This document shows, one piece after another, positions 3,449 to 42,983 of a stretch of DNA of 64,000 nt (position 1 is its first letter; the number at the start of each line of letters is the position of its first letter). A model generated the notes under the pieces. That model was not told the origin of the DNA. It did not search any database and saw nothing but the letters and a program-made list of their open reading frames with translations. This stretch comes from an uncultured Bacilli bacterium (lineage in GTDB: Bacteria > Bacillota_I > Bacilli_A > RF39 > UBA660). Location: the NCBI GenBank assembly GCA_944358675.1, contig CALVRN010000004.1, positions 10,276-74,275 of the forward strand, in the 5' to 3' direction. Both the position numbers and the translations under genes were made by a program.

Positions 3449-5970
3449 ATATTCTCCTTTAATTTATATAAAATGTTTAAGGCTTCCATCGGTGTAATTT
3501 CAAGTGGATTTATTTTTTCTAATTCTTCTTCTACTTTAGATTTTTTTGGCATTAATTCATCGATTGGTAAAGCTTCTTGAACTTTGATATCTCTTTTATG
3601 TTCTTTATCTTCATAGACTTTTAAAATTTCTGATGCTCTTTTAATTACAGAATCTGGTAAGTTAGCTAGTTTAGCTACATGAATACCATAACTCTTATCA
3701 ACGCTTCCTTCTTTAATTTTGTGTAAAAATGTTATTTTCCCATCTTCTTCATAAGCTGAAACATGAATGTTTTTTAAATGTTTTAGGGTTTTATCTAAAT
3801 CCGTTAATTCGTGATAATGGGTAGAAAAGAAGGTTTTACCTTTAATATTTTGATGAATATATTCAATTATACCTTGAGCTAAAGCCATACCATCAAAGGT
3901 GGCAGTACCCCTTCCTAATTCATCAAATAGAAGTAAACTTTTATCGGTAGCTGATGTAATAGCGTTGGCGGCTTCAGTCATTTCAACCATAAATGTTGAT
4001 TCACCACTTACTAGGTCATCAGAAGCACCAATTCTTGTATAAATTGCATCGAAAATAGGTAATTTGGCCACTGTTGCTGGAATAAATGAACCAATTTGAG
4101 CCATGATTGCTATAATAGCCATCTGTCTCATGTATGTCGATTTTCCTGCCATATTTGGTCCAGTTATTAATAGAATATTTGTGTTTTTATCCATAATAAT
4201 ATCATTAGTAACAAATTCACCATTAATAACTTTTTCAACAACTGGATGGCGAGATTCTTTAATATATATTTCGTTATTAGTTAGTTCTGGTCTTACGTAA
4301 TTATTGGTTTCTGCTATGGTTGCGAAAGATTGTAAAACATCTATTTCACTAATTATTTTAGCGGTGTCTTGAAGTTTTGGAATATAGGTTTTAACTTCAT
4401 CTCTAATATTACAGAATAAATCATATTCTAGTTCGATGATCTTTTCTTCAGCATTCAAGATTAAAGCTTCTTTTTCTTTTAAAATTGGGCTGATATATCT
4501 TTCGCAGTTAGTTAGAGTTTGTTTTCTTTGATAGCCCCATTCATCTTTAACTAAGTTGGTATTACCTTTACTGATTTCGATATAATAGCCAAAAACTCTG
4601 TTATAACCAACTTTTAAATTTTTGATACCAGTCTTTTCTCTTTCTTCGGTTTCGAATTTAGCGACAAAGTCTTTACCACCTTTTCTTAAGGTTTTTAGTT
4701 CATCTAGTTCTTTGTTATATCCTTCTTTAATTAAATATCCTTCTTTGGTGCTGACAGGTGGATTTTCATAAATACTTTTTTCGAGTAATTTATATAAATT
4801 AGAAAAGTCTGTTATTTTTTTTTGATAATTTATCTTTTCTAATATTTCAGAAATTAATGGTAAAACTTTTAAGGATGATTTTAACTGAAGTAAATCTTTA
4901 CCATTCGCATTACCAAAAGCTATTTTACCGCTTAATCTTTCTAAGTCATAGATTTCAGTTAGATATTTTTCTAAATCGCTTTTATAAATAAATTCCTTGA
5001 GTAAAATATCTACAATATCATATCTTTTTTCTATTTCCTTTTTATCAATTAATGGATTTAATAAGTAATTTTTTAAAAGTCTGGCTCCCATAGCTGTCTT
5101 AGTTTTATCTAAAAGCCAAATTAATGAATAATTTCTTTGCTTTAGCCTTAATGTTTCAGTTAATTCTAAATTTCTTTTAGTATGAACATCCATCCTTAAA
5201 TGATCTTTGGTTTCCCTTATTTGTAGTTTTTGCAAATGAGATAAATCTCTTTTTTGATTATGGATGATATAGGCGATTAAGTGTTTAACTGCGGTTATAT
5301 ATCTTTGGTCTATAATATCTTCATAAATATATGAATATTCATCAGAAATCTCATCAGTAATAGTTAAGGTTAAATGAAATTGATTTTTTAAAATGGAATA
5401 AATTTCTTTATCGGTTTTACTATCTAATATTACTTCTTTAACACCTAAATTAATAATTTCTGAAATTAGTTTAGTTTTATTTTTTTCGAGTAAAAAGGCG
5501 TATATTTCACCAGTTGAAACATCTGCATAACTTACTGCATATTCATGTTTAAAATCAGTAATTGAAGCAATAAAATTAAAATCATCAGCTTTTAAAGTGT
5601 CGGTATCCATAATGGTTCCAGAACTAATTATTTGTACGATACCTCTTTTAACAATTCCTTTAACTCCTTTAGGGTCTTCTAATTGTTCAACAATACCTAT
5701 TTTATGTCCGTTTTCAATTAATTTATCGATGTATGTACTAGCGGCATGATAAGGAATACCACACATAGGTATTCTTTCTTCTAAACCGGCTGATTTGCCT
5801 GTTAAAGTTAGTTCAAGTTCATGGCTAACTTTTATAGCATCATCAAAAAACATTTCATAAAAATCACCTAATCTAAAAAATATGATTAGGTCTTCATTTT
5901 CGTTTTTTATTTCCAAGTATTGTCTCATCATTGGAGTTACTTTTTCTATATTAACATCTTTTCTTTCCAC
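3445..5970 (-). CDS. mutS: DNA mismatch repair protein MutS
   Basis: 841 aa. N-terminal TPMMRQYLEIK, Walker A GPNMAGKSTYMRQ, and STFMVEM / DELGRGTATFDG motifs. Confidence 0.97.
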   Translation of the reverse strand: MERKDVNIEKVTPMMRQYLEIKNENEDLIIFFRLGDFYEMFFDDAIKVSHELELTLTGKSAGLEERIPMCGIPYHAASTYIDKLIENGHKIGIVEQLEDPKGVKGIVKRGIVQIISSGTIMDTDTLKADDFNFIASITDFKHEYAVSYADVSTGEIYAFLLEKNKTKLISEIINLGVKEVILDSKTDKEIYSILKNQFHLTLTITDEISDEYSYIYEDIIDQRYITAVKHLIAYIIHNQKRDLSHLQKLQIRETKDHLRMDVHTKRNLELTETLRLKQRNYSLIWLLDKTKTAMGARLLKNYLLNPLIDKKEIEKRYDIVDILLKEFIYKSDLEKYLTEIYDLERLSGKIAFGNANGKDLLQLKSSLKVLPLISEILEKINYQKKITDFSNLYKLLEKSIYENPPVSTKEGYLIKEGYNKELDELKTLRKGGKDFVAKFETEEREKTGIKNLKVGYNRVFGYYIEISKGNTNLVKDEWGYQRKQTLTNCERYISPILKEKEALILNAEEKIIELEYDLFCNIRDEVKTYIPKLQDTAKIISEIDVLQSFATIAETNNYVRPELTNNEIYIKESRHPVVEKVINGEFVTNDIIMDKNTNILLITGPNMAGKSTYMRQMAIIAIMAQIGSFIPATVAKLPIFDAIYTRIGASDDLVSGESTFMVEMTEAANAITSATDKSLLLFDELGRGTATFDGMALAQGIIEYIHQNIKGKTFFSTHYHELTDLDKTLKHLKNIHVSAYEEDGKITFLHKIKEGSVDKSYGIHVAKLANLPDSVIKRASEILKVYEDKEHKRDIKVQEALPIDELMPKKSKVEEELEKINPLEITPMEALNILYKLKENI

Positions 5971-6226
5971 TATAAATCACTTCCATTTTTTGGTTATATT
6001 ATAACATTTGAAAATATTATTTTCAAGAAATGTAATGATATTAATTGGATTATATGCAGATTTACTTTTTCCTATTTCTTTATTTTATCAGCTAAAAAAT
6101 TATATATAAATCTTGAACATTCTATTGTTTTATTAATTAACTCTTCTTATTTTTCATTTGAATACATCCTAAATACATAACCTTTTGCAAGCGTTTGTTT
6201 TTTACAAAGCAAATTCCTAATAAATA

Positions 6227-6255
6227 AAAAAGGTAAGATTTCTTTTTACCTTTTT
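6227..6255. terminator. Bidirectional hairpin terminator downstream of ylbL
   Basis: AAAAAGGTAA-loop-TTACCTTTTTT sits just 3' of the ylbL stop at 6260. Confidence 0.6.
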
Positions 6256-6259
6256 TATT

Positions 6260-7270
6260 CTACTGATTTTCCAAATATTTTAAAGCTTCTTCAAAAGTTT
6301 CAACAGGCACTAAATCAATGTTATATCCTCTTTCTTCTTTTATTTTTTTGGCATCTTCATAATTTTTACCCTTAGGCACTAGAAATATATCGGCATGTTT
6401 ATTAACCGCCCCTATTAATTTATATTTAATACCGCTTATTTCTCCAACATTTCCATTTATATCAATTGTACCTGTTCCAACTATAGTCTTACCATCAGTT
6501 AAATCAATTTTATTTAAATGACTATATATAGTTAGTGTTAACATTAGGCCACCAGAAGAACCTGATTCACTTTCTTTAAAATTAAACTTAACATTTTTAT
6601 TAGATTTAACATCAAATGTTTCTGTAATGATTGCTCCTACTTTTGGTTCATCTGCCACATTAATTAATGTGGCTTTTCTTGTCTTTTTTTCACCATTTAT
6701 GTCAAGTACTTTTAAAGTAATTTTATCTCCTACTTTTTTAGAAGCAATATATGACTGCAATGAATTTTTATCAATAACTTGTTCGTTATCAACTTTTAAA
6801 ATTTGATCTCCTATTTTTAAATCTGTTTTGGAAAGTTCATCAATATAAGTTATATAAACTTTATTATTTGTAACTTCATAATGAATGTCAGAATGTTTAT
6901 AAGCAACAAGTAAAGCAATATCATTCGATTCTTCTAAAAGCATCTTATTTCTATAATTTTTTTCTTCAATGGTTTCATTATCATTTTTTATTTCTTCTTC
7001 TTTCTCTACATCCCAATCGTTATTAAAAAGAGAAACGATTAAAGTTGGTATTGTTGCGTGAATTTCAGATACATAAGCCATATTTAAAGTTCCGGACATT
7101 TTAAAGTTTTCTTTTGTTTGAATTTTGTTATCTGTATTAATGAGTCCACCTGGGGCTGAAATATAATAAGGAAATTCTACTAAAAAAGTAACTAGAATTA
7201 AAATATATACAATTATAACTTTATAGTATTCTTTTATATATTTTTTAATATTATTAAATAGGTTTTTCAT
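6260..7270 (-). CDS. ylbL: YlbL/SepM-like membrane-anchored PDZ + Lon-protease-C-terminal (S16) serine protease
   Basis: N-terminal TM segment, PDZ-like stretch (GDQILKVDNEQV), and a C-terminal Lon-like GSSGGL...KL.GA motif region. Adjacent to ylbJ, as in Bacillus. Confidence 0.8.
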   Translation of the reverse strand: MKNLFNNIKKYIKEYYKVIIVYILILVTFLVEFPYYISAPGGLINTDNKIQTKENFKMSGTLNMAYVSEIHATIPTLIVSLFNNDWDVEKEEEIKNDNETIEEKNYRNKMLLEESNDIALLVAYKHSDIHYEVTNNKVYITYIDELSKTDLKIGDQILKVDNEQVIDKNSLQSYIASKKVGDKITLKVLDINGEKKTRKATLINVADEPKVGAIITETFDVKSNKNVKFNFKESESGSSGGLMLTLTIYSHLNKIDLTDGKTIVGTGTIDINGNVGEISGIKYKLIGAVNKHADIFLVPKGKNYEDAKKIKEERGYNIDLVPVETFEEALKYLENQ

Positions 7271-7316
7271 ATTGTACCCCTTTCTTTAATAGGTTTATTT
7301 AATAGCAGGTGAAATT

Positions 7317-8291
7317 ATGAGAAAAATGACTAGTATTTTTATAATGGTTATTTTAATTTTTATTGGATATGAAATTTTAACGGAATCTGAAAGTATTTTA
7401 AATTCAGTTAATTTTTCACTTAGTATTTTTAAAAATAATATTTTTCCTTCATTATTTCCATTTTTTGTTTTATCAAATATTTTAATTAAATGTGGTTTGC
7501 CTGAATTTATGGGTAATTTATTTAAAGGAGTTATGAATAAAATTTTCAAGATTAAAGGTATCACCGCATTTATTTTCTTCATGAGTATTATATCAGGAAA
7601 TCCTGCGAATGCAAAATACACAAGAGAATTATATTTAGAAAATAGAATAGATAAATATGAGGCAACTAAAATTTTATGTTTTACTTGTTTTTCTAATCCT
7701 TTATTTATTTTAGGAACGATATCTTTGCTTTTTTTGAATAATAAAGAGGTCGGTATGTTAATATTGGTATGCCATTATATTGGTAATATATTTATTGGAA
7801 TTGGAATGAGAAACTACCATCCAAGTAAAGATGAACATAATAAAGTTAGTTTTAGACAGGCAATCAATGAAATGCATAAAAAAAGAATTAGTAATAAAGA
7901 AAGTTTTGGAGAAATGATTACTAATTCTTTAATTAATAGTATAAATACTCTTTTGTTAATATTAGGGGTAATTACTTCGTGTTTAGTAATTACTACAATT
8001 ATCGATAATAATTTAAACTTAGATAGTGTATTAGGCAGTGTATTAAATGGTTTTATTGAAATGACTCAAGGATTAAAATATATAAGTTTGGAGGCTATAC
8101 CATTAAAACTAAAGTGTGTTTTAACGGTTATGATTTTATCTTTTGGAGGACTTTCAGTGCATATGCAGATTATGAGTATATTAAGTGATACGGAAATTAG
8201 ATATTTACCCTTTTTATGCGCGAGAGTATGTCACGCAGTTATTTCATCATTATTTATGTATATATTATTTGATTTTTGGATGAATCTATGA
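7317..8291 (+). CDS. ylbJ: YlbJ-like nucleoside-recognition-domain integral membrane protein
   Basis: Polytopic membrane protein, divergent from ylbL. Has the typical GLPEFMG..F....K and ISGNPANAK motifs. Confidence 0.75.
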   Translation: MRKMTSIFIMVILIFIGYEILTESESILNSVNFSLSIFKNNIFPSLFPFFVLSNILIKCGLPEFMGNLFKGVMNKIFKIKGITAFIFFMSIISGNPANAKYTRELYLENRIDKYEATKILCFTCFSNPLFILGTISLLFLNNKEVGMLILVCHYIGNIFIGIGMRNYHPSKDEHNKVSFRQAINEMHKKRISNKESFGEMITNSLINSINTLLLILGVITSCLVITTIIDNNLNLDSVLGSVLNGFIEMTQGLKYISLEAIPLKLKCVLTVMILSFGGLSVHMQIMSILSDTEIRYLPFLCARVCHAVISSLFMYILFDFWMNL

Positions 8292-8726
8292 TGAATAAAA
8301 GTAAGTTACATCATAATTATAGGCTTGTTTTAAATTGCCACTATCTAAAGTCATTTGAACATATAAATAACAATTTCTTCCATTACAAGTGTTACTTAAA
8401 CTATAATTTTTAATGTCAACTGTATCAGGCATTAAAAAATTTTGCCCATTAATAATAACTTTTTTACCACTTTGATCTATTTTTAAAGTCTTACCATTAA
8501 TTGTACAAGCGGAGCCTGAGCAACTCACAGTGCTTCCGACTGTCGACAAGGTATTTTCAATGTTTTTTGAAATAATACCAAATTTTTGCTGGATAGCTGT
8601 TTTAACACTTGTGTCAGCAAAAATATCTTTAACCTCAATTAAAACTTCAAATAGAAAGACAGTAATAACCATTGTAAGCGCAAAAGATGCGATTAATTCA
8701 ACAACTGTAAAACCTTTATTGTCCAT
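8286..8726 (-). CDS. Prepilin-type N-terminal cleavage/methylation domain protein (minor pilin / pseudopilin)
   Basis: MDNKG|FTVVELIASF has the G-F-T-x-x-E prepilin signal followed by a hydrophobic helix. Confidence 0.8.
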   Translation of the reverse strand: MDNKGFTVVELIASFALTMVITVFLFEVLIEVKDIFADTSVKTAIQQKFGIISKNIENTLSTVGSTVSCSGSACTINGKTLKIDQSGKKVIINGQNFLMPDTVDIKNYSLSNTCNGRNCYLYVQMTLDSGNLKQAYNYDVTYFYSS

Positions 8727-38881: not shown

Positions 38882-38956
38882 TGGTGTTCGAAGGGAGAAT
38901 TGAACTCCCACCTTTCCCTTCGGAGGGGAAAACTCTATCCATTAAGCTATTCGAAC
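38882..38956 (-). tRNA. tRNA-Arg (anticodon CCG)
   Basis: The reverse complement GTTCGAATAGCTTAATGGATAGAG...TTCCC-CTCCGAA-GGGAA...TTCGAACACCA forms a cloverleaf with encoded CCA. Confidence 0.85.
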
Positions 38957-39027
38957 AACTATATATATAGTATAACATAAAACCACTCAGGATAAAACCT
39001 GGGTGGTTAATGTTTTAAACAATGTTT

Positions 39028-39420
39028 TTATAATACATAAGTTGTTCCATATACAAAGTTTGAAACCTTTATTATATATGTACCATTATATGGAGAATGT
39101 CCAACTTCAATTTCTCTTTCTTCGCCTTCTTTTAATTTGAATTTTTTGTCTTTTTCATTTATATATGGACTATCAAAAGTAAAAGTTATTTCATCTTCAT
39201 TTGCATCTATAACGGAAATTCCATATAAAACATCATCTTTTATAGTTGAAGATTTGAACTGATAAAATTCATGTCTTTCAATAATTTTTTCTCTTTTTTT
39301 GACTATAAGATCAATTTCAAAGGTCATACTAACTCTTCCTTTATTCATTTTTTCTTTTCTTTCTTCATTTGATAAATCTTTCCATTCTTTTAATTCATTT
39401 TCATTAAACTCTTGAAACAT
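39028..39420 (-). CDS. Hypothetical soluble protein, last gene of the HerA-like cluster
   Basis: 130-aa ORF lying 20 nt downstream of 39441..39878. No recognised motif. Confidence 0.5.
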   Translation of the reverse strand: MFQEFNENELKEWKDLSNEERKEKMNKGRVSMTFEIDLIVKKREKIIERHEFYQFKSSTIKDDVLYGISVIDANEDEITFTFDSPYINEKDKKFKLKEGEEREIEVGHSPYNGTYIIKVSNFVYGTTYVL

Positions 39421-39440
39421 ATTTTTTAAATTTTAATTGT

Positions 39441-39878
39441 TTATGATAAAACTTGAGTGGTTATGTTTAATTCAACACTTTTAATATTTTTTAAATTTTT
39501 GTTTGTTTTAACTGTAATGTTTTTTTCTTCTTCACCATTTATAATATCACCTAAATAACTTGTCATAGTAGTTTTATTATTTTGATTATCTTTTAAAGTT
39601 ATAGTTATTGGAGATATTTTTAACATATTTGAAGTCATATTTGTAGCTTTAGCTGTAAAATAGAATTCATCATCTTTTTTAAATATTTTGATATCACTAA
39701 ATAATATGTGATTTTGAACAGTGTTTTCAAAAGTTATGTGGATAAGTTCTGGTTCTTTTTCTATTTCTTCGTTTTGATGTTTTGGAATAAAGATATAAAT
39801 TGTACCTATTATAATAATTAATATAATGGAGATTATAGCTATTTTCATTGGTGTAATAGCTTTAATATCTTGTTCCAT
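39441..39878 (-). CDS. Membrane-anchored small beta-rich protein, translationally coupled to the HerA-like ATPase
   Basis: TAATG stop/start overlap with the upstream gene. N-terminal TM helix, and the FTAKATNMTSN...ITVKTNKNLKNI pattern resembles 11602..12075. Confidence 0.6.
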   Translation of the reverse strand: MEQDIKAITPMKIAIISIILIIIIGTIYIFIPKHQNEEIEKEPELIHITFENTVQNHILFSDIKIFKKDDEFYFTAKATNMTSNMLKISPITITLKDNQNNKTTMTSYLGDIINGEEEKNITVKTNKNLKNIKSVELNITTQVLS

Positions 39879-41632
39879 TAATTAGCCTTCCAAGTTTCGA
39901 AGACATTACAACTACTTGATGAAGGTGCTGGATCTGGCATTTTCATTCTGACAATAGTTGGTATTTTGAAAGCACCACCAAAGGCCATACATGTTCCTGG
40001 CTGCAAGGTTTTTTGTTTTTCAACAATATCTGCTGAAATATTTGGAAGCATTTTTGTTATATAATCTAAATCTCTTGGATGGGTAATCTTAAAAATTAAG
40101 AAGTTCGCACATTGTGAAATAACGGTATCAGATATTTCAACTGGTCTTTGAGAAATAAGATTGAAAATCAAACCATATTTACGACCTTCTTTAGCGGCTC
40201 TTTCGAATATATTATAGCCTATTAGAGCAACATCTCCATCATTTTGAACATATCTGTGAGCTTCTTCAACAAATATATGGAATGGAATAGATGCTCTGTT
40301 TTTAAGACTTTTAGTAAAATTAAATAACATTTTTGTGTAAATTTTAACAACTACTTTGGCAAACCAATCTTCTACATCTTCTAGATTAAAGTTAATAACT
40401 TGAGCTTTCTTGCTATTTTTAGCAACTAATGTAGCTATATAATTTTCCATGGTTATAAATGTAGGATAACGTAAATACCTTGAATTTTCAGATATAGTTA
40501 GTGAATGAAGTCTTACTTTTAGTTCAATAGCATCTGCATAGGTATCTGTATTATTTAATAAACCTTCACTGATTAAAGTAAATTCTAATGCTTTTTCTAA
40601 ATCTTCTAATGTATAAAATTTAATTTCTTTTGGTTCATATTTATCTAATGATTCATCTATGAAACCGGTAATATATTCGGTCATTAAGATACTTTCAGGA
40701 AATTGCCCTTGAGTATCAATTGTAAAACATTCTCTAAATTTTCTAGTATATCCAATACCTTGAACTGGTGCTTCTAAATTAAATTCATTAGTTGAACAAT
40801 TAGCTAAAATGGCAAAAACATCGTTTCTTTTACTACTGGCTGTTTGATTTGTGTATAAAATTGTCATTATTGCTTTGGCGATTAAATGATTTTTGTATTT
40901 TGTACTCATTTCATCATCAGATGCGAATATATTAACTAGTTTTAACATTCTTTCAATGATTGTCAATTGTGAGTGTTTATCAGCACGTAATAACAAAGCC
41001 ATATCATCAATATCAAGTAACCAAAGTGGTATAGATAGTATTTCGCCATCAGTTTGATGAACGTTAGTTGTATAGAATTTAAAGTTTAAGTTGGGATTTA
41101 TTTGATTGATGTTTTGTAAGGCATTATGGTATTCACCATAAGCATCAAATATAAAGAAATTAGATCTAAATGGCAATAATTTAGGATTTTCAAAAACATT
41201 TTGAAGTAATCTTGCGACACCACATGATTTACCAGAACCACTGTTACCAAATATAGCCATATGACTACTGAATAAATCATTAATATCAACATAAATTGGA
41301 TGACTATCGTAAAGCGGACTTTCACCAATTACAAATGATGAAGATGTATCTGCACCTAATATTAGGCCCACTTCTTCTTGACTTATTAATCTTAAATGTG
41401 AATTAAAAGTTGGTTTTCTGATAACACCACCTACGAATTTCCCATTAGTGATCTCACCTAAAAATCTAATTTTGATTATTTCATTCCCAACATCTTCTAC
41501 TTCACCTAAAATTTTCTTTTTTTCATCTTCAAAGATAACATGCATATTCATGATGTTTGTTGAAATCGAACCATCTTTTGGTGTTTCAACATGTGCTTCA
41601 GTATCACTGATATAAAGTATTTTCCCAAACAT
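39878..41632 (-). CDS. HerA/DUF87-like (FtsK-HerA superfamily) ATPase
   Basis: N-terminal barrel-like segment, Walker A IFGNSGSGKSCGV, Walker B-like HIFVEEAHRYV, 584 aa. SD GGGGAGG upstream. Confidence 0.75.
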   Translation of the reverse strand: MFGKILYISDTEAHVETPKDGSISTNIMNMHVIFEDEKKKILGEVEDVGNEIIKIRFLGEITNGKFVGGVIRKPTFNSHLRLISQEEVGLILGADTSSSFVIGESPLYDSHPIYVDINDLFSSHMAIFGNSGSGKSCGVARLLQNVFENPKLLPFRSNFFIFDAYGEYHNALQNINQINPNLNFKFYTTNVHQTDGEILSIPLWLLDIDDMALLLRADKHSQLTIIERMLKLVNIFASDDEMSTKYKNHLIAKAIMTILYTNQTASSKRNDVFAILANCSTNEFNLEAPVQGIGYTRKFRECFTIDTQGQFPESILMTEYITGFIDESLDKYEPKEIKFYTLEDLEKALEFTLISEGLLNNTDTYADAIELKVRLHSLTISENSRYLRYPTFITMENYIATLVAKNSKKAQVINFNLEDVEDWFAKVVVKIYTKMLFNFTKSLKNRASIPFHIFVEEAHRYVQNDGDVALIGYNIFERAAKEGRKYGLIFNLISQRPVEISDTVISQCANFLIFKITHPRDLDYITKMLPNISADIVEKQKTLQPGTCMAFGGAFKIPTIVRMKMPDPAPSSSSCNVFETWKAN

Positions 41633-41644
41633 AATTTTCCTCCC

Positions 41645-41935
41645 CTATAATAAATCTTCTATTTGTTTTTTAATTTTTGGATTTATATCTTTAATTATTT
41701 CTTTTATTTTTTTACTATTTTGATATTGTTTTAATATATTTTCATAATGTAATAGTTTATTTTCAGCCTCTTTTACTTGTTTATGGACAGCATTTCTCGA
41801 TACATCTTCATTTTCTGCTATTTCTGATAGTGTTAGATTATTGAAGTAATAGTCTTTGAAATAGGCTTGCTGCTTATCTGTGAGTAGCTCTCCATAATAA
41901 TCAAATAGGTTACTTAAATAGATTGTCTTATCCAT
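41645..41935 (-). CDS. ylxM: YlxM/p13-like putative DNA-binding protein (UPF0122)
   Basis: LFDYYGELLTDKQ...YY..LTLSEIAE...SRNAVHKQVK, located directly after ftsY. Confidence 0.88.
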   Translation of the reverse strand: MDKTIYLSNLFDYYGELLTDKQQAYFKDYYFNNLTLSEIAENEDVSRNAVHKQVKEAENKLLHYENILKQYQNSKKIKEIIKDINPKIKKQIEDLL

Positions 41936-42909
41936 TATTTATTCATTCCTTTAAATAAACCATATATGTATTTTTCAATATCAAATACTCTTAAATCATC
42001 TTTAGTCTCACCTAGACCAACATATTTAACAGGTATACCCGTTTCTTCTTTGATAGCTAAAACTATTCCACCTTTAGCTGTACCATCTAATTTAGTTAAA
42101 ACAATACCAGTTATATTGGTTATTTCTTTAAAGTTTTTAGCTTGACTAATACCATTTTGCCCAGTAGTAGCATCGATTACAAGTAGTGTTTCGTGTGGTG
42201 CATTTTCTATTAATTTTCCAATAACTTTATTTATTTTTTCTAACTCTTTCATTAAACCTACTTTGTTTTGAAGTCTACCAGCAGTATCGATTAAAACAAC
42301 ATCATAGTTTTCTTCTTTGGCTTTATTAACCCCATCGTACATGACACTTACGGGATCAGCATTTTCTCTTGAGACAATGTCAACGCCAATTCTTTTAGCC
42401 CATTCATCCAACTGTTCGATAGCTCCAGCTCTAAAGGTATCACCAGCAACCATTAAAACTTTCTTACCTTCTTCTTTTAATTTATAAGCTATTTTACCGA
42501 TAGTTGTTGTTTTACCAGCACCGTTTACCCCAACAAATAAGATAATGGTTGGCCCTTCTTTAGCATAATTAATTTTATTTGTTATGATATCACCATCAAC
42601 ATATATAATGAACATTTCATCTACTATAATATCTTTTAACTCATCAGCTGTTTTGATGTTTTCTTTTTTAACACGTTTTTTTAGTCTATCGATTATCTCC
42701 ATTACGGTGTTTACTCCAATATCAGACATAATCAATATTTCCTCTAGGTTTTCAAAGTATTCATCATCAACTATTTTGTGGTTTTTATTTAAGTTTAATA
42801 AAGCTGATAAGAAATTATCTCTTGTTTTTTCTAATCCTTTATCATAAATTTGTACTTCTTCTTTTTCTTCTTTTTTAAAGATGTTTTTAAATTTGTCAAA
42901 TAATCCCAT
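41935..42909 (-). CDS. ftsY: Signal recognition particle receptor FtsY
   Basis: GVNGAGKTTTIGK, DTAGRL and TKLDGTAKGG motifs. ATG at 42909 (MGLFDKFK) behind AGGGTGA. Confidence 0.95.
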   Translation of the reverse strand: MGLFDKFKNIFKKEEKEEVQIYDKGLEKTRDNFLSALLNLNKNHKIVDDEYFENLEEILIMSDIGVNTVMEIIDRLKKRVKKENIKTADELKDIIVDEMFIIYVDGDIITNKINYAKEGPTIILFVGVNGAGKTTTIGKIAYKLKEEGKKVLMVAGDTFRAGAIEQLDEWAKRIGVDIVSRENADPVSVMYDGVNKAKEENYDVVLIDTAGRLQNKVGLMKELEKINKVIGKLIENAPHETLLVIDATTGQNGISQAKNFKEITNITGIVLTKLDGTAKGGIVLAIKEETGIPVKYVGLGETKDDLRVFDIEKYIYGLFKGMNK

Positions 42910-42983
42910 GTTTATCACCCTGTTACTATAATAATTCTACACTATTTTTTTCGAAACCGCAATAAATATAGAGAAATTTCAAC

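Follow-up and report, generated by a model that had tools for sequence, protein, structure and literature searches.

To our knowledge, bacterial HerA ATPases are known almost only as partners of an effector, which is NurA, SIR2 or DUF4297, and HerA was reportedly put forward by Iyer et al. in 2004 as the archaeal analogue of FtsK. The closest described systems are Sir2-HerA (PDB entries 9c1m, 8ziq and 8j4u/8su9; PMC11514289), DUF4297-HerA, in which DUF4297 is a Cap4 nuclease (8xau; PMC11291478), and the HerA-NurA machine of archaeal and Deinococcus-Thermus end resection (4d2i; PMC9960219, PMC3326311). Here we describe a HerA-type ATPase gene, herA1 (39878-41632, minus strand, 584 aa), found next to none of these partners. 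It belongs to a 64,000-nucleotide stretch of contig CALVRN010000004.1 (the window) from an uncultured Bacilli bacterium (RF39; UBA660), represented by a metagenome-assembled genome (MAG) of 1.2 Mb that is 85% complete. The genes ftsY, ylxM, herA1, p145 and p130 are arranged head to tail on the minus strand, with folD and ackA beyond. An earlier note on this DNA had read herA1 and the two small genes as one unit, either an uncharacterized membrane-associated translocation module or a defense-type HerA system with novel effectors. Our analysis makes it highly probable that HerA1 is instead a core HerA passed on by vertical inheritance and that the trio does not form a module.

Profile searches placed HerA1 in the HerA clade, as the earlier note had suggested. 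In Pfam, the protein matched DUF87 (PF01935, Helicase HerA central domain) at 78.6 bits against a cut-off of 23.2 (9.5e-22), whereas FtsK_SpoIIIE (PF01580) reached 18.3 bits, below its cut-off of 24, and covered the P-loop part only. The PADLOC HerA profile PDLC04102 matched at 2.4e-103 over residues 3 to 581, and no transmembrane (TM) segment was found. The best PDB match was 9c1m (1.4e-43), followed by 8ziq and 8xau (8.7e-36), with Sulfolobus HerA 4d2i (3.7e-26) and the Sir2-HerA entries 8j4u/8su9 ranking lower. In the N-terminal region, the PADLOC profile aligned from residue 3 and the PDB HerAs from residues 42-53. Scores against the NCBIfam equivalogs for anti-phage HerA were 160.8 bits for NF042944 (cut-off, 850) and 145.6 bits for NF042943 (cut-off, 800).

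The same genome encodes a second copy, HerA2 (C38:2962-4731), which is 48% identical to HerA1 and has a DUF87 score of 93.5 bits. We compared the catalytic motifs in 16 HerA1 and HerA2 sequences. In Walker A (GNSGSGKS, residues 129-136, positions 41225-41248, minus strand), G129, G132, G134, K135 and S136 were invariant, and in the Walker B region (HIFVEEAHRY, residues 452-461, positions 40250-40279, minus strand) the same was true of H452 and E457-Y461. Both the first motif and EEAHRY had already been recognized in the earlier note. A third block, KEGRKYG...ISQRP (residues 481-497, positions 40142-40192, minus strand), with invariant K481-G487 and Q495-P497, is a putative sensor/arginine-finger region by analogy with HerA-type ATPases. 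Judged by its sequence, HerA1 is a bona fide HerA-clade P-loop ATPase with the predicted catalytic motifs intact in both paralogues, and by the same matches it is nearer to the bacterial defense-type HerAs than to archaeal HerA.

The distribution of the protein supports core status. Among 24 other species genomes of the genus, 22 encoded a full-length, syntenic HerA1 at 81-96% identity, and a 23rd held a fragment at a contig end. HerA2, with 46-51% identity to HerA1, was present in 23 of the 24, and neither copy was found in one genus genome (74% complete). Of 34 genomes sampled from the family's other genera, 32 also had HerA1 or HerA2, and two copies were the rule. A single copy at 42-46% identity was detected in G025, from another family of the same order, and in G030, from another family of the same class, at 46% in the latter. 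The remainder of the class gave only sporadic HerA matches at 24-39%.

The position of the gene was conserved as well. The order ftsY-ylxM-herA1 was retained in all 11 other genus loci, and in many other genera the order was ftsY-ylxM-herA1-ffh. There, the distance from the herA1 stop to the start of ffh was often no more than about 100 nt (L024, L025, L027, L028, L036, L048 and L077); elsewhere in these genera a variable insert of 0.5-5 kb separated the two genes. This order suggests that herA1 entered the operon at the ylxM-ffh junction and that ffh later left in the window's genus. In the window's own assembly, ffh was found intact on another contig (G000:C14:26769-28037, 614 bits), without ylxM, after tex, a lipoprotein gene, uppP and a surface-protein gene. 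The proposal that herA1 and its small neighbors occupy the slot of ffh was imprecise, since sister genera have herA1 between ylxM and ffh. From the gene orders compared, the herA1-ffh junction is a site that later became variable.

In a FastTree phylogeny of 83 sequences, HerA1 and HerA2 formed two clades, each with 100% support. The HerA1 clade comprised a subclade located in the operon of the signal recognition particle (SRP) (28 of 29 rows in that context), an 18-member sister subclade located in a gatCAB...tcdA-rarA-xerD neighborhood, and three basal rows. The HerA2 clade took in the lone HerA of G030 and that of G025. The herA2 gene comes after yqeG-yqeH, and in many cases a dacF-like gene is found upstream and feoB downstream. 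Genomic context changed 6 times on this tree, compared to a mean of 34 in shuffles, which fits vertical inheritance at stable positions. On this phylogeny, HerA1 and HerA2 are ancient paralogues fixed in a family of uncultured gut Bacilli with reduced genomes (0.7-1.5 Mb). One locus (L059) harbored a tandem herA1 duplication after ylxM (4135-5883 and 6001-7752), with copies 55-57% identical to the window copy and ffh further on.

We estimated selection as dN/dS (Nei-Gojobori) for window genes against 11 genus orthologues. The ratios were 0.02-0.08 for herA1, 0.02-0.12 for ftsY, 0.07-0.15 for ylxM, 0.11-0.18 for folD and 0.15-0.38 for p145, with synonymous sites near saturation (pS 0.5-0.7), which makes the values rough and their ranking more reliable than the values themselves. 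HerA1 is as constrained as the SRP receptor FtsY and is under strong purifying selection. A vertically inherited core gene under purifying selection does not behave as a defense cassette would.

The relatives of HerA1 point to its origin. An exhaustive search of 1.84 billion representatives returned about a dozen clusters at an identity of at least 39%, which we took as the core HerA family itself, and a next tier of full-length proteins at 30-37%. The contexts examined were those of 11 representatives of this tier and beyond and that of the sporadic 26% homologue in the class member G126. The HerA gene lay directly after a SIR2_2 gene in P0206, P0207, P0218 (two contigs), P0223, P0260, P0272 and the G126 homologue, which makes 8 of the 12 contexts, or 7 of the 11 distinct relatives (P0218 counted once) and 7 of the 10 outside the core clade. 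Several of these sit in restriction, GmrSD or PLD defense islands. In an IQ-TREE phylogeny of 56 sequences, the core family plus P0208 formed a clade with 100% support and a long stem (0.68). Its sister was the Sir2-linked P0207, the core was nested in successive clades holding SIR2-linked HerAs, and SIR2-linked HerAs lay on both sides of the midpoint root. The simplest reading of this nesting is that the lineage captured a Sir2-HerA ATPase and lost SIR2. We therefore regard descent of the core clade from Sir2-linked HerAs, as suggested by this tree, as probable.

Another partner was seen beside P0297, which was paired with an AAA_15/AAA_21 ATPase. At L133:776-4225 and L134:605-4054, a more distant HerA of 551 aa, with a weak HerA_C match, is encoded together with a 596-aa AAA_15/AAA_21 ATPase and not SIR2. 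Such a pair may be a different two-gene HerA system.

In line with the earlier note, the usual HerA partners were not found. NurA (PF09376) gave nothing in the window's own assembly at E <= 1, and seven control genomes were positive. SIR2_2 (PF13289) was absent from the own genome and from the 24 relatives, and the same search does detect SIR2_2 beside distant HerAs. DUF4297 had no genome-wide matches in a search made without a positive control. None of the genes neighboring herA1 encoded a NurA, SIR2 or DUF4297 domain. Gene absences in the own assembly are unreliable at 85% completeness. Indeed, recA, radA and recN were apparently missing from it in a motif scan, and we regard the loss of recA as an artefact of the incomplete MAG, since recA was present in 30 of 30 relatives.

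Compared with the described systems, HerA1 is closest to Sir2-HerA. The three-part layout appears to be the same, in that the regions of the RecA-like core, of the C-terminal brace and of a putative N-terminal HAS-type beta-barrel fall within the profile and structure alignments; a C-terminal P-x-P-x-P...W motif is common to both, and the best sequence matches are of this type. However, the gene upstream of herA1 is ylxM and not a SIR2 gene, with no SIR2 in 25 genomes; HerA1 is core and vertical, whereas Sir2-HerA is patchy and found in defense islands; identity is only about 30-37%, with a long stem and scores far under the equivalog cut-offs; and the HerA1 lineage has duplicated into two conserved paralogues. 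DUF4297-HerA has a HerA-clade ATPase with similar E-values (8.7e-36 for 8xau) but differs by its DUF4297 partner, which is not adjacent to HerA1. The HerA-NurA machine resembles HerA1 in having a chromosomal, HerA-clade ATPase, and its ring form and housekeeping role in DNA metabolism, which HerA1 would share, make it the favored functional model. Unlike it, HerA1 is encoded in a genome without NurA and without mre11-rad50 linkage, and its sequence is nearer to the defense-type bacterial HerAs. FtsK, SpoIIIE and SftA belong to the same superfamily, and in some genomes the HerA2 gene lies beside sepF or between a dacF-like gene and spoIIAA. Nevertheless, the FtsK_SpoIIIE match of HerA1 is below threshold and these genomes carry a canonical 737-aa FtsK/SpoIIIE of their own.

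Several HerA neighborhoods include division or sporulation genes. In one HerA2 subclade (L107, L110, L117, L118 and L120), sepF was found next to herA2, and in L022 the order was sepF-divIVA-ileS-dac-yqeG-yqeH-herA2. The HerA gene of G030 (L015:7066-12301) lies between a dacF-like carboxypeptidase gene and spoIIAA-spoIIAB-sigF, with a DUF308 membrane protein next. The third HerA1 context, that of the 18-member sister subclade, has xerD and rarA nearby. By reading open reading frames (ORFs), we also assigned the sporulation genes sigF, spoIIAA/AB, spoVA and SpoIVA. These neighborhoods hint weakly at septation or sporulation.

Taken together, we propose that the Sir2-HerA motor was retained in this lineage while SIR2 disappeared, that its gene was duplicated and that one copy became established at a site flanked by ylxM and ffh. 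The departure of ffh in the window's genus would then have left ftsY-ylxM-herA1, to which p145 and, in one strain group only, p130 would have been added ahead of a terminator and a tRNA-Arg gene. HerA1 would be co-transcribed constitutively with ftsY-ylxM and would form a hexamer, possibly mixed with HerA2, that spends ATP moving along or remodeling double-stranded DNA in chromosome segregation, septation clearance or repair. The ring and the action on duplex DNA are proposed because HerA-clade proteins behave in this way (PMC3326311, PMC9960219, PMC11514289). The products of p145 and p130 would be operon hitch-hikers and not subunits. Overall, we think it rather likely that HerA1 is a constitutive, effector-less core ring ATPase derived from Sir2-HerA, most likely a DNA translocase. 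That this translocase has a housekeeping role, by analogy with other HerAs, is plausible but short of likely. More speculatively, a domesticated Sir2-HerA ATPase might have become an indispensable housekeeping motor throughout this family of reduced-genome gut Bacilli after SIR2 was lost. In this tentative extension, HerA1 and HerA2, perhaps in mixed rings, would be produced from the SRP and yqeH operons and serve as a soluble translocase that handles the chromosome at the septa of division or sporulation, recruited in some genera via short motifs that end long disordered C-terminal tails.

Several points weigh against this proposal, beside the near-saturated synonymous sites mentioned above. 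ATPase activity, ring assembly, DNA substrate and essentiality of HerA1 are all properties that we infer. On its own, Staphylococcus aureus HerA forms a trimer that lacks ATPase activity, and Sir2 is required for the hexamer to form (PMC11514289). Given this inactive apo form, a stand-alone descendant must either have become autonomous or need an unlinked partner, and HerA1 plus HerA2 is one candidate combination. The lineage also has the usual DNA motors: FtsK/SpoIIIE, SMC, an AddA-like protein and RecA were detected by profile search, and RecG, RuvB and PriA were assigned from the N-terminal sequences of P-loop ORFs, as were Mfd, PcrA and RecD2. Because these motors are present, no missing function points to HerA, and we rejected the idea that HerA stands in for a missing DNA motor. 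Some genera have only one paralogue, and 2 of the 34 sampled family genomes have none. Regarding the origin, the 56-sequence tree is midpoint-rooted, with no archaeal outgroup, and no SIR2 is visible beside three near relatives on short contigs, one of which (P0208) falls within the core clade.

An alternative is that HerA1 and HerA2 are core and yet still immune, being phage sensors or abortive-infection ATPases inherited from Sir2-HerA that act unaided or through effectors whose genes lie elsewhere in the genome. In line with this, the majority of the closest relatives studied are Sir2-HerA defense ATPases, anti-phage HerAs gave the highest-ranking profile and structure matches, and the window holds further conflict-type genes. 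However, near-universal presence, fixed positions in housekeeping operons and a dN/dS equal to that of ftsY are atypical of defense genes; no SIR2 occurs in the 25 genomes, no neighbor is conserved, and the NCBIfam anti-phage HerA scores (161 and 146 bits) are far from their cut-offs of 850 and 800. We consider this alternative unlikely.

The conserved place of herA1 could also mean that HerA1 works with FtsY, YlxM and Ffh, for instance as a ring ATPase for nascent or membrane proteins, or with the HTH protein YlxM as an adaptor. The gene lies between ylxM and ffh and is tightly coupled to ylxM in many genera, and the FtsK-HerA superfamily includes protein-translocating ATPases. Yet the 18-sequence HerA1 sister subclade and the whole HerA2 clade are found in contexts without ylxM, and ffh is unlinked in the window's genus. 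All characterized HerA-clade members that we know of act on DNA, and in small genomes the sharing of an operon says little about function. A role tied to the SRP is therefore quite unlikely. Full-text searches returned no paper in which HerA or DUF87 is connected to ylxM, to the SRP operon or to these lineages.

The two small proteins were then weighed as possible partners of HerA1. The first, p145 (39441-39878, minus strand, 145 aa), is a single-pass membrane protein, and the second, p130 (39028-39420, minus strand, 130 aa), is a soluble, beta-rich strain-level orphan; the earlier note had likewise called the first a single-pass membrane protein and the second soluble. Neither has a family in Pfam, NCBIfam or PADLOC. 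The AF2 model of p145 (pLDDT 86) consists of one TM helix (residues 10-30) and an all-beta, Ig-like beta-sandwich domain (residues 48-143), which is probably extracytoplasmic. Its Foldseek matches were generic only (DUF1425, ApaG and TRAP-beta, E about 2e-3). The model of p130 (pLDDT 77) is beta-rich without a hydrophobic segment, and no fold match was better than E 0.03 (Foldseek). No functional lead was gained from either model.

Both genes are of narrow distribution. In the genus loci, p145 was 37-76% identical where HerA1 was 87-96% identical. It came next after herA1 in 9 of the 12 genus loci read downstream and was missing in L006, L011 and L012. The protein-cluster matches of p145 comprised 65 clusters, one of them from Firmicutes bacterium CAG:822, and no homologue outside the genus was found either among the genes downstream of family HerAs or in the cluster search. 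For p130, 5 clusters among 5.8 billion proteins were found, all at least 68% identical, and the gene was absent from all 11 other genus loci. Based on these distributions, p145 is a genus-level and p130 a strain-level addition, next to a tRNA gene. The gene 3' of 79 family HerA genes was ffh, sepF, a transporter gene, one of an assortment of genes for hypothetical proteins, or nothing, and these genes were mutually unrelated. Because of this variety, the trio is not a conserved unit, and no partner was common to the 79 HerAs. We also looked for a recurrent, non-homologous membrane protein 3' of HerA and rejected the idea, as there was no consistent pattern across the family.

A genus-specific, membrane-tethered translocation module, in which p145 would anchor HerA1 through its short N-terminal cytoplasmic stub, is very unlikely on these data. 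The TAATG translational coupling, the occurrence of p145 after herA1 in most genus loci and the lack of the long C-terminal tail of other genera in the genus HerA1 would all suit such an anchor. On the other hand, p145 is absent from three genus loci and from outside the genus, it evolves 5-10 times faster than HerA1, and only about 9 residues precede its TM helix, its folded part being generic, Ig-like and most likely outside the cell. The membrane-associated module of the earlier note is therefore not borne out, p130 being restricted to the strain level. Its other suggestion, a three-gene defense system with p145 and p130 as novel effectors, has in its favor that HerA1 is related to anti-phage HerAs and that its small neighbors have no known function, but the distribution comes close to refuting it: p130 is limited to near-identical strains and was missing from every other genome of the genus, the three genes are not found together again, and HerA1 is a core gene at a conserved position. 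In addition, neither p145 nor p130 shows a fold like that of an enzyme or a toxin.

Variation was also seen at the C terminus of HerA1. In many other genera (L023-L031, L052, L055-L058, L060, L062, L067 and L075), HerA1 carries a disordered tail of 40-430 aa rich in P, Q, N and S, which is absent from the window HerA1. The tail ends share short motifs, namely IPE(I/M)(N/D), AIPDF, (L/M)PTTDxGxPL(I/V)xL, LNIDxxINAPD and acidic runs ending in F. Linker-plus-peptide docking tails of the kind known from FtsZ or SSB look similar. Long frames around herA1 in other genera were considered as fusions of HerA with a membrane protein; this was rejected, the extensions being these disordered tails.

The organization of the window locus was as follows. 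The unit is headed by ftsY (41935-42918, minus strand), which exceeded the cut-off of TIGR00064 with 365 bits. It abuts ylxM (41645-41935, minus strand), encoding the UPF0122 helix-turn-helix (HTH) protein of the SRP operon (PF04297, 88 bits; NF045758, 87.4 bits against a cut-off of 80). The ylxM stop is separated from the herA1 ATG by 12 nt, a spacer that includes a GGGAGG Shine-Dalgarno sequence, and the herA1 stop and the p145 start overlap in TAATG. The three ORFs, this gap and the coupling were all as previously described. No evident Shine-Dalgarno sequence precedes p130. By sequence scan, ftsY is preceded by a promoter-like site (42954-42925) and, farther out, by a terminator-like hairpin (43007-42987). 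Downstream of p130, a terminator-like hairpin with an 11-bp stem and 6 GC pairs (38981-39008, minus strand) is followed on the minus strand by the T-rich tract TTTTATGTTAT. Given these bounds, ftsY-ylxM-herA1-p145-p130 is the likely transcription unit, ended by the latter hairpin. A tRNA-Arg(CCG) gene (38882-38956, minus strand; ARAGORN) is located between this hairpin and folD, so that the strain-specific p130 lies directly upstream of it, with the hairpin in between; the earlier note mentions neither element.

Additional features were observed in related genomes. Some genus species have an ORF of 78-81 aa with two TM segments that overlaps ftsY and ylxM (L011:982-1218, L012:959-1201, L013:961-1206 and L044:3382-3627); the window lacks this ORF, its ftsY and ylxM genes meeting at 41935. 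In the complete genus genome G009, two 514-aa transposase-like ORFs (L020:1848-3392 and 6813-8357), identical in their first 60 residues, bracket a J-domain gene, ackA and folD immediately 3' of p145. This flanking pair suggests that the region downstream of herA1 is prone to rearrangement. FtsK-family proteins resembling EssC (about 1260-1540 aa), as are typical for type VII secretion, were encoded in several genomes of the genus and family (G004, G005, G008, G012 and G002), and at L078:201-3986 an EssC-like protein, with WXG-like small genes, was encoded just upstream of herA1.

Overall, these data describe a HerA clade that has no effector and behaves as an essential gene would, being duplicated, syntenic across dozens of genera, as constrained as the SRP receptor and located inside the SRP operon. 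In annotation, labels such as anti-phage HerA or defense system should be avoided for the HerA1 and HerA2 genes. If their descent from Sir2-HerA is true, they would represent a clear case of an immune ATPase made into a core cellular component, and they would offer a way to learn what a HerA ring does on its own.

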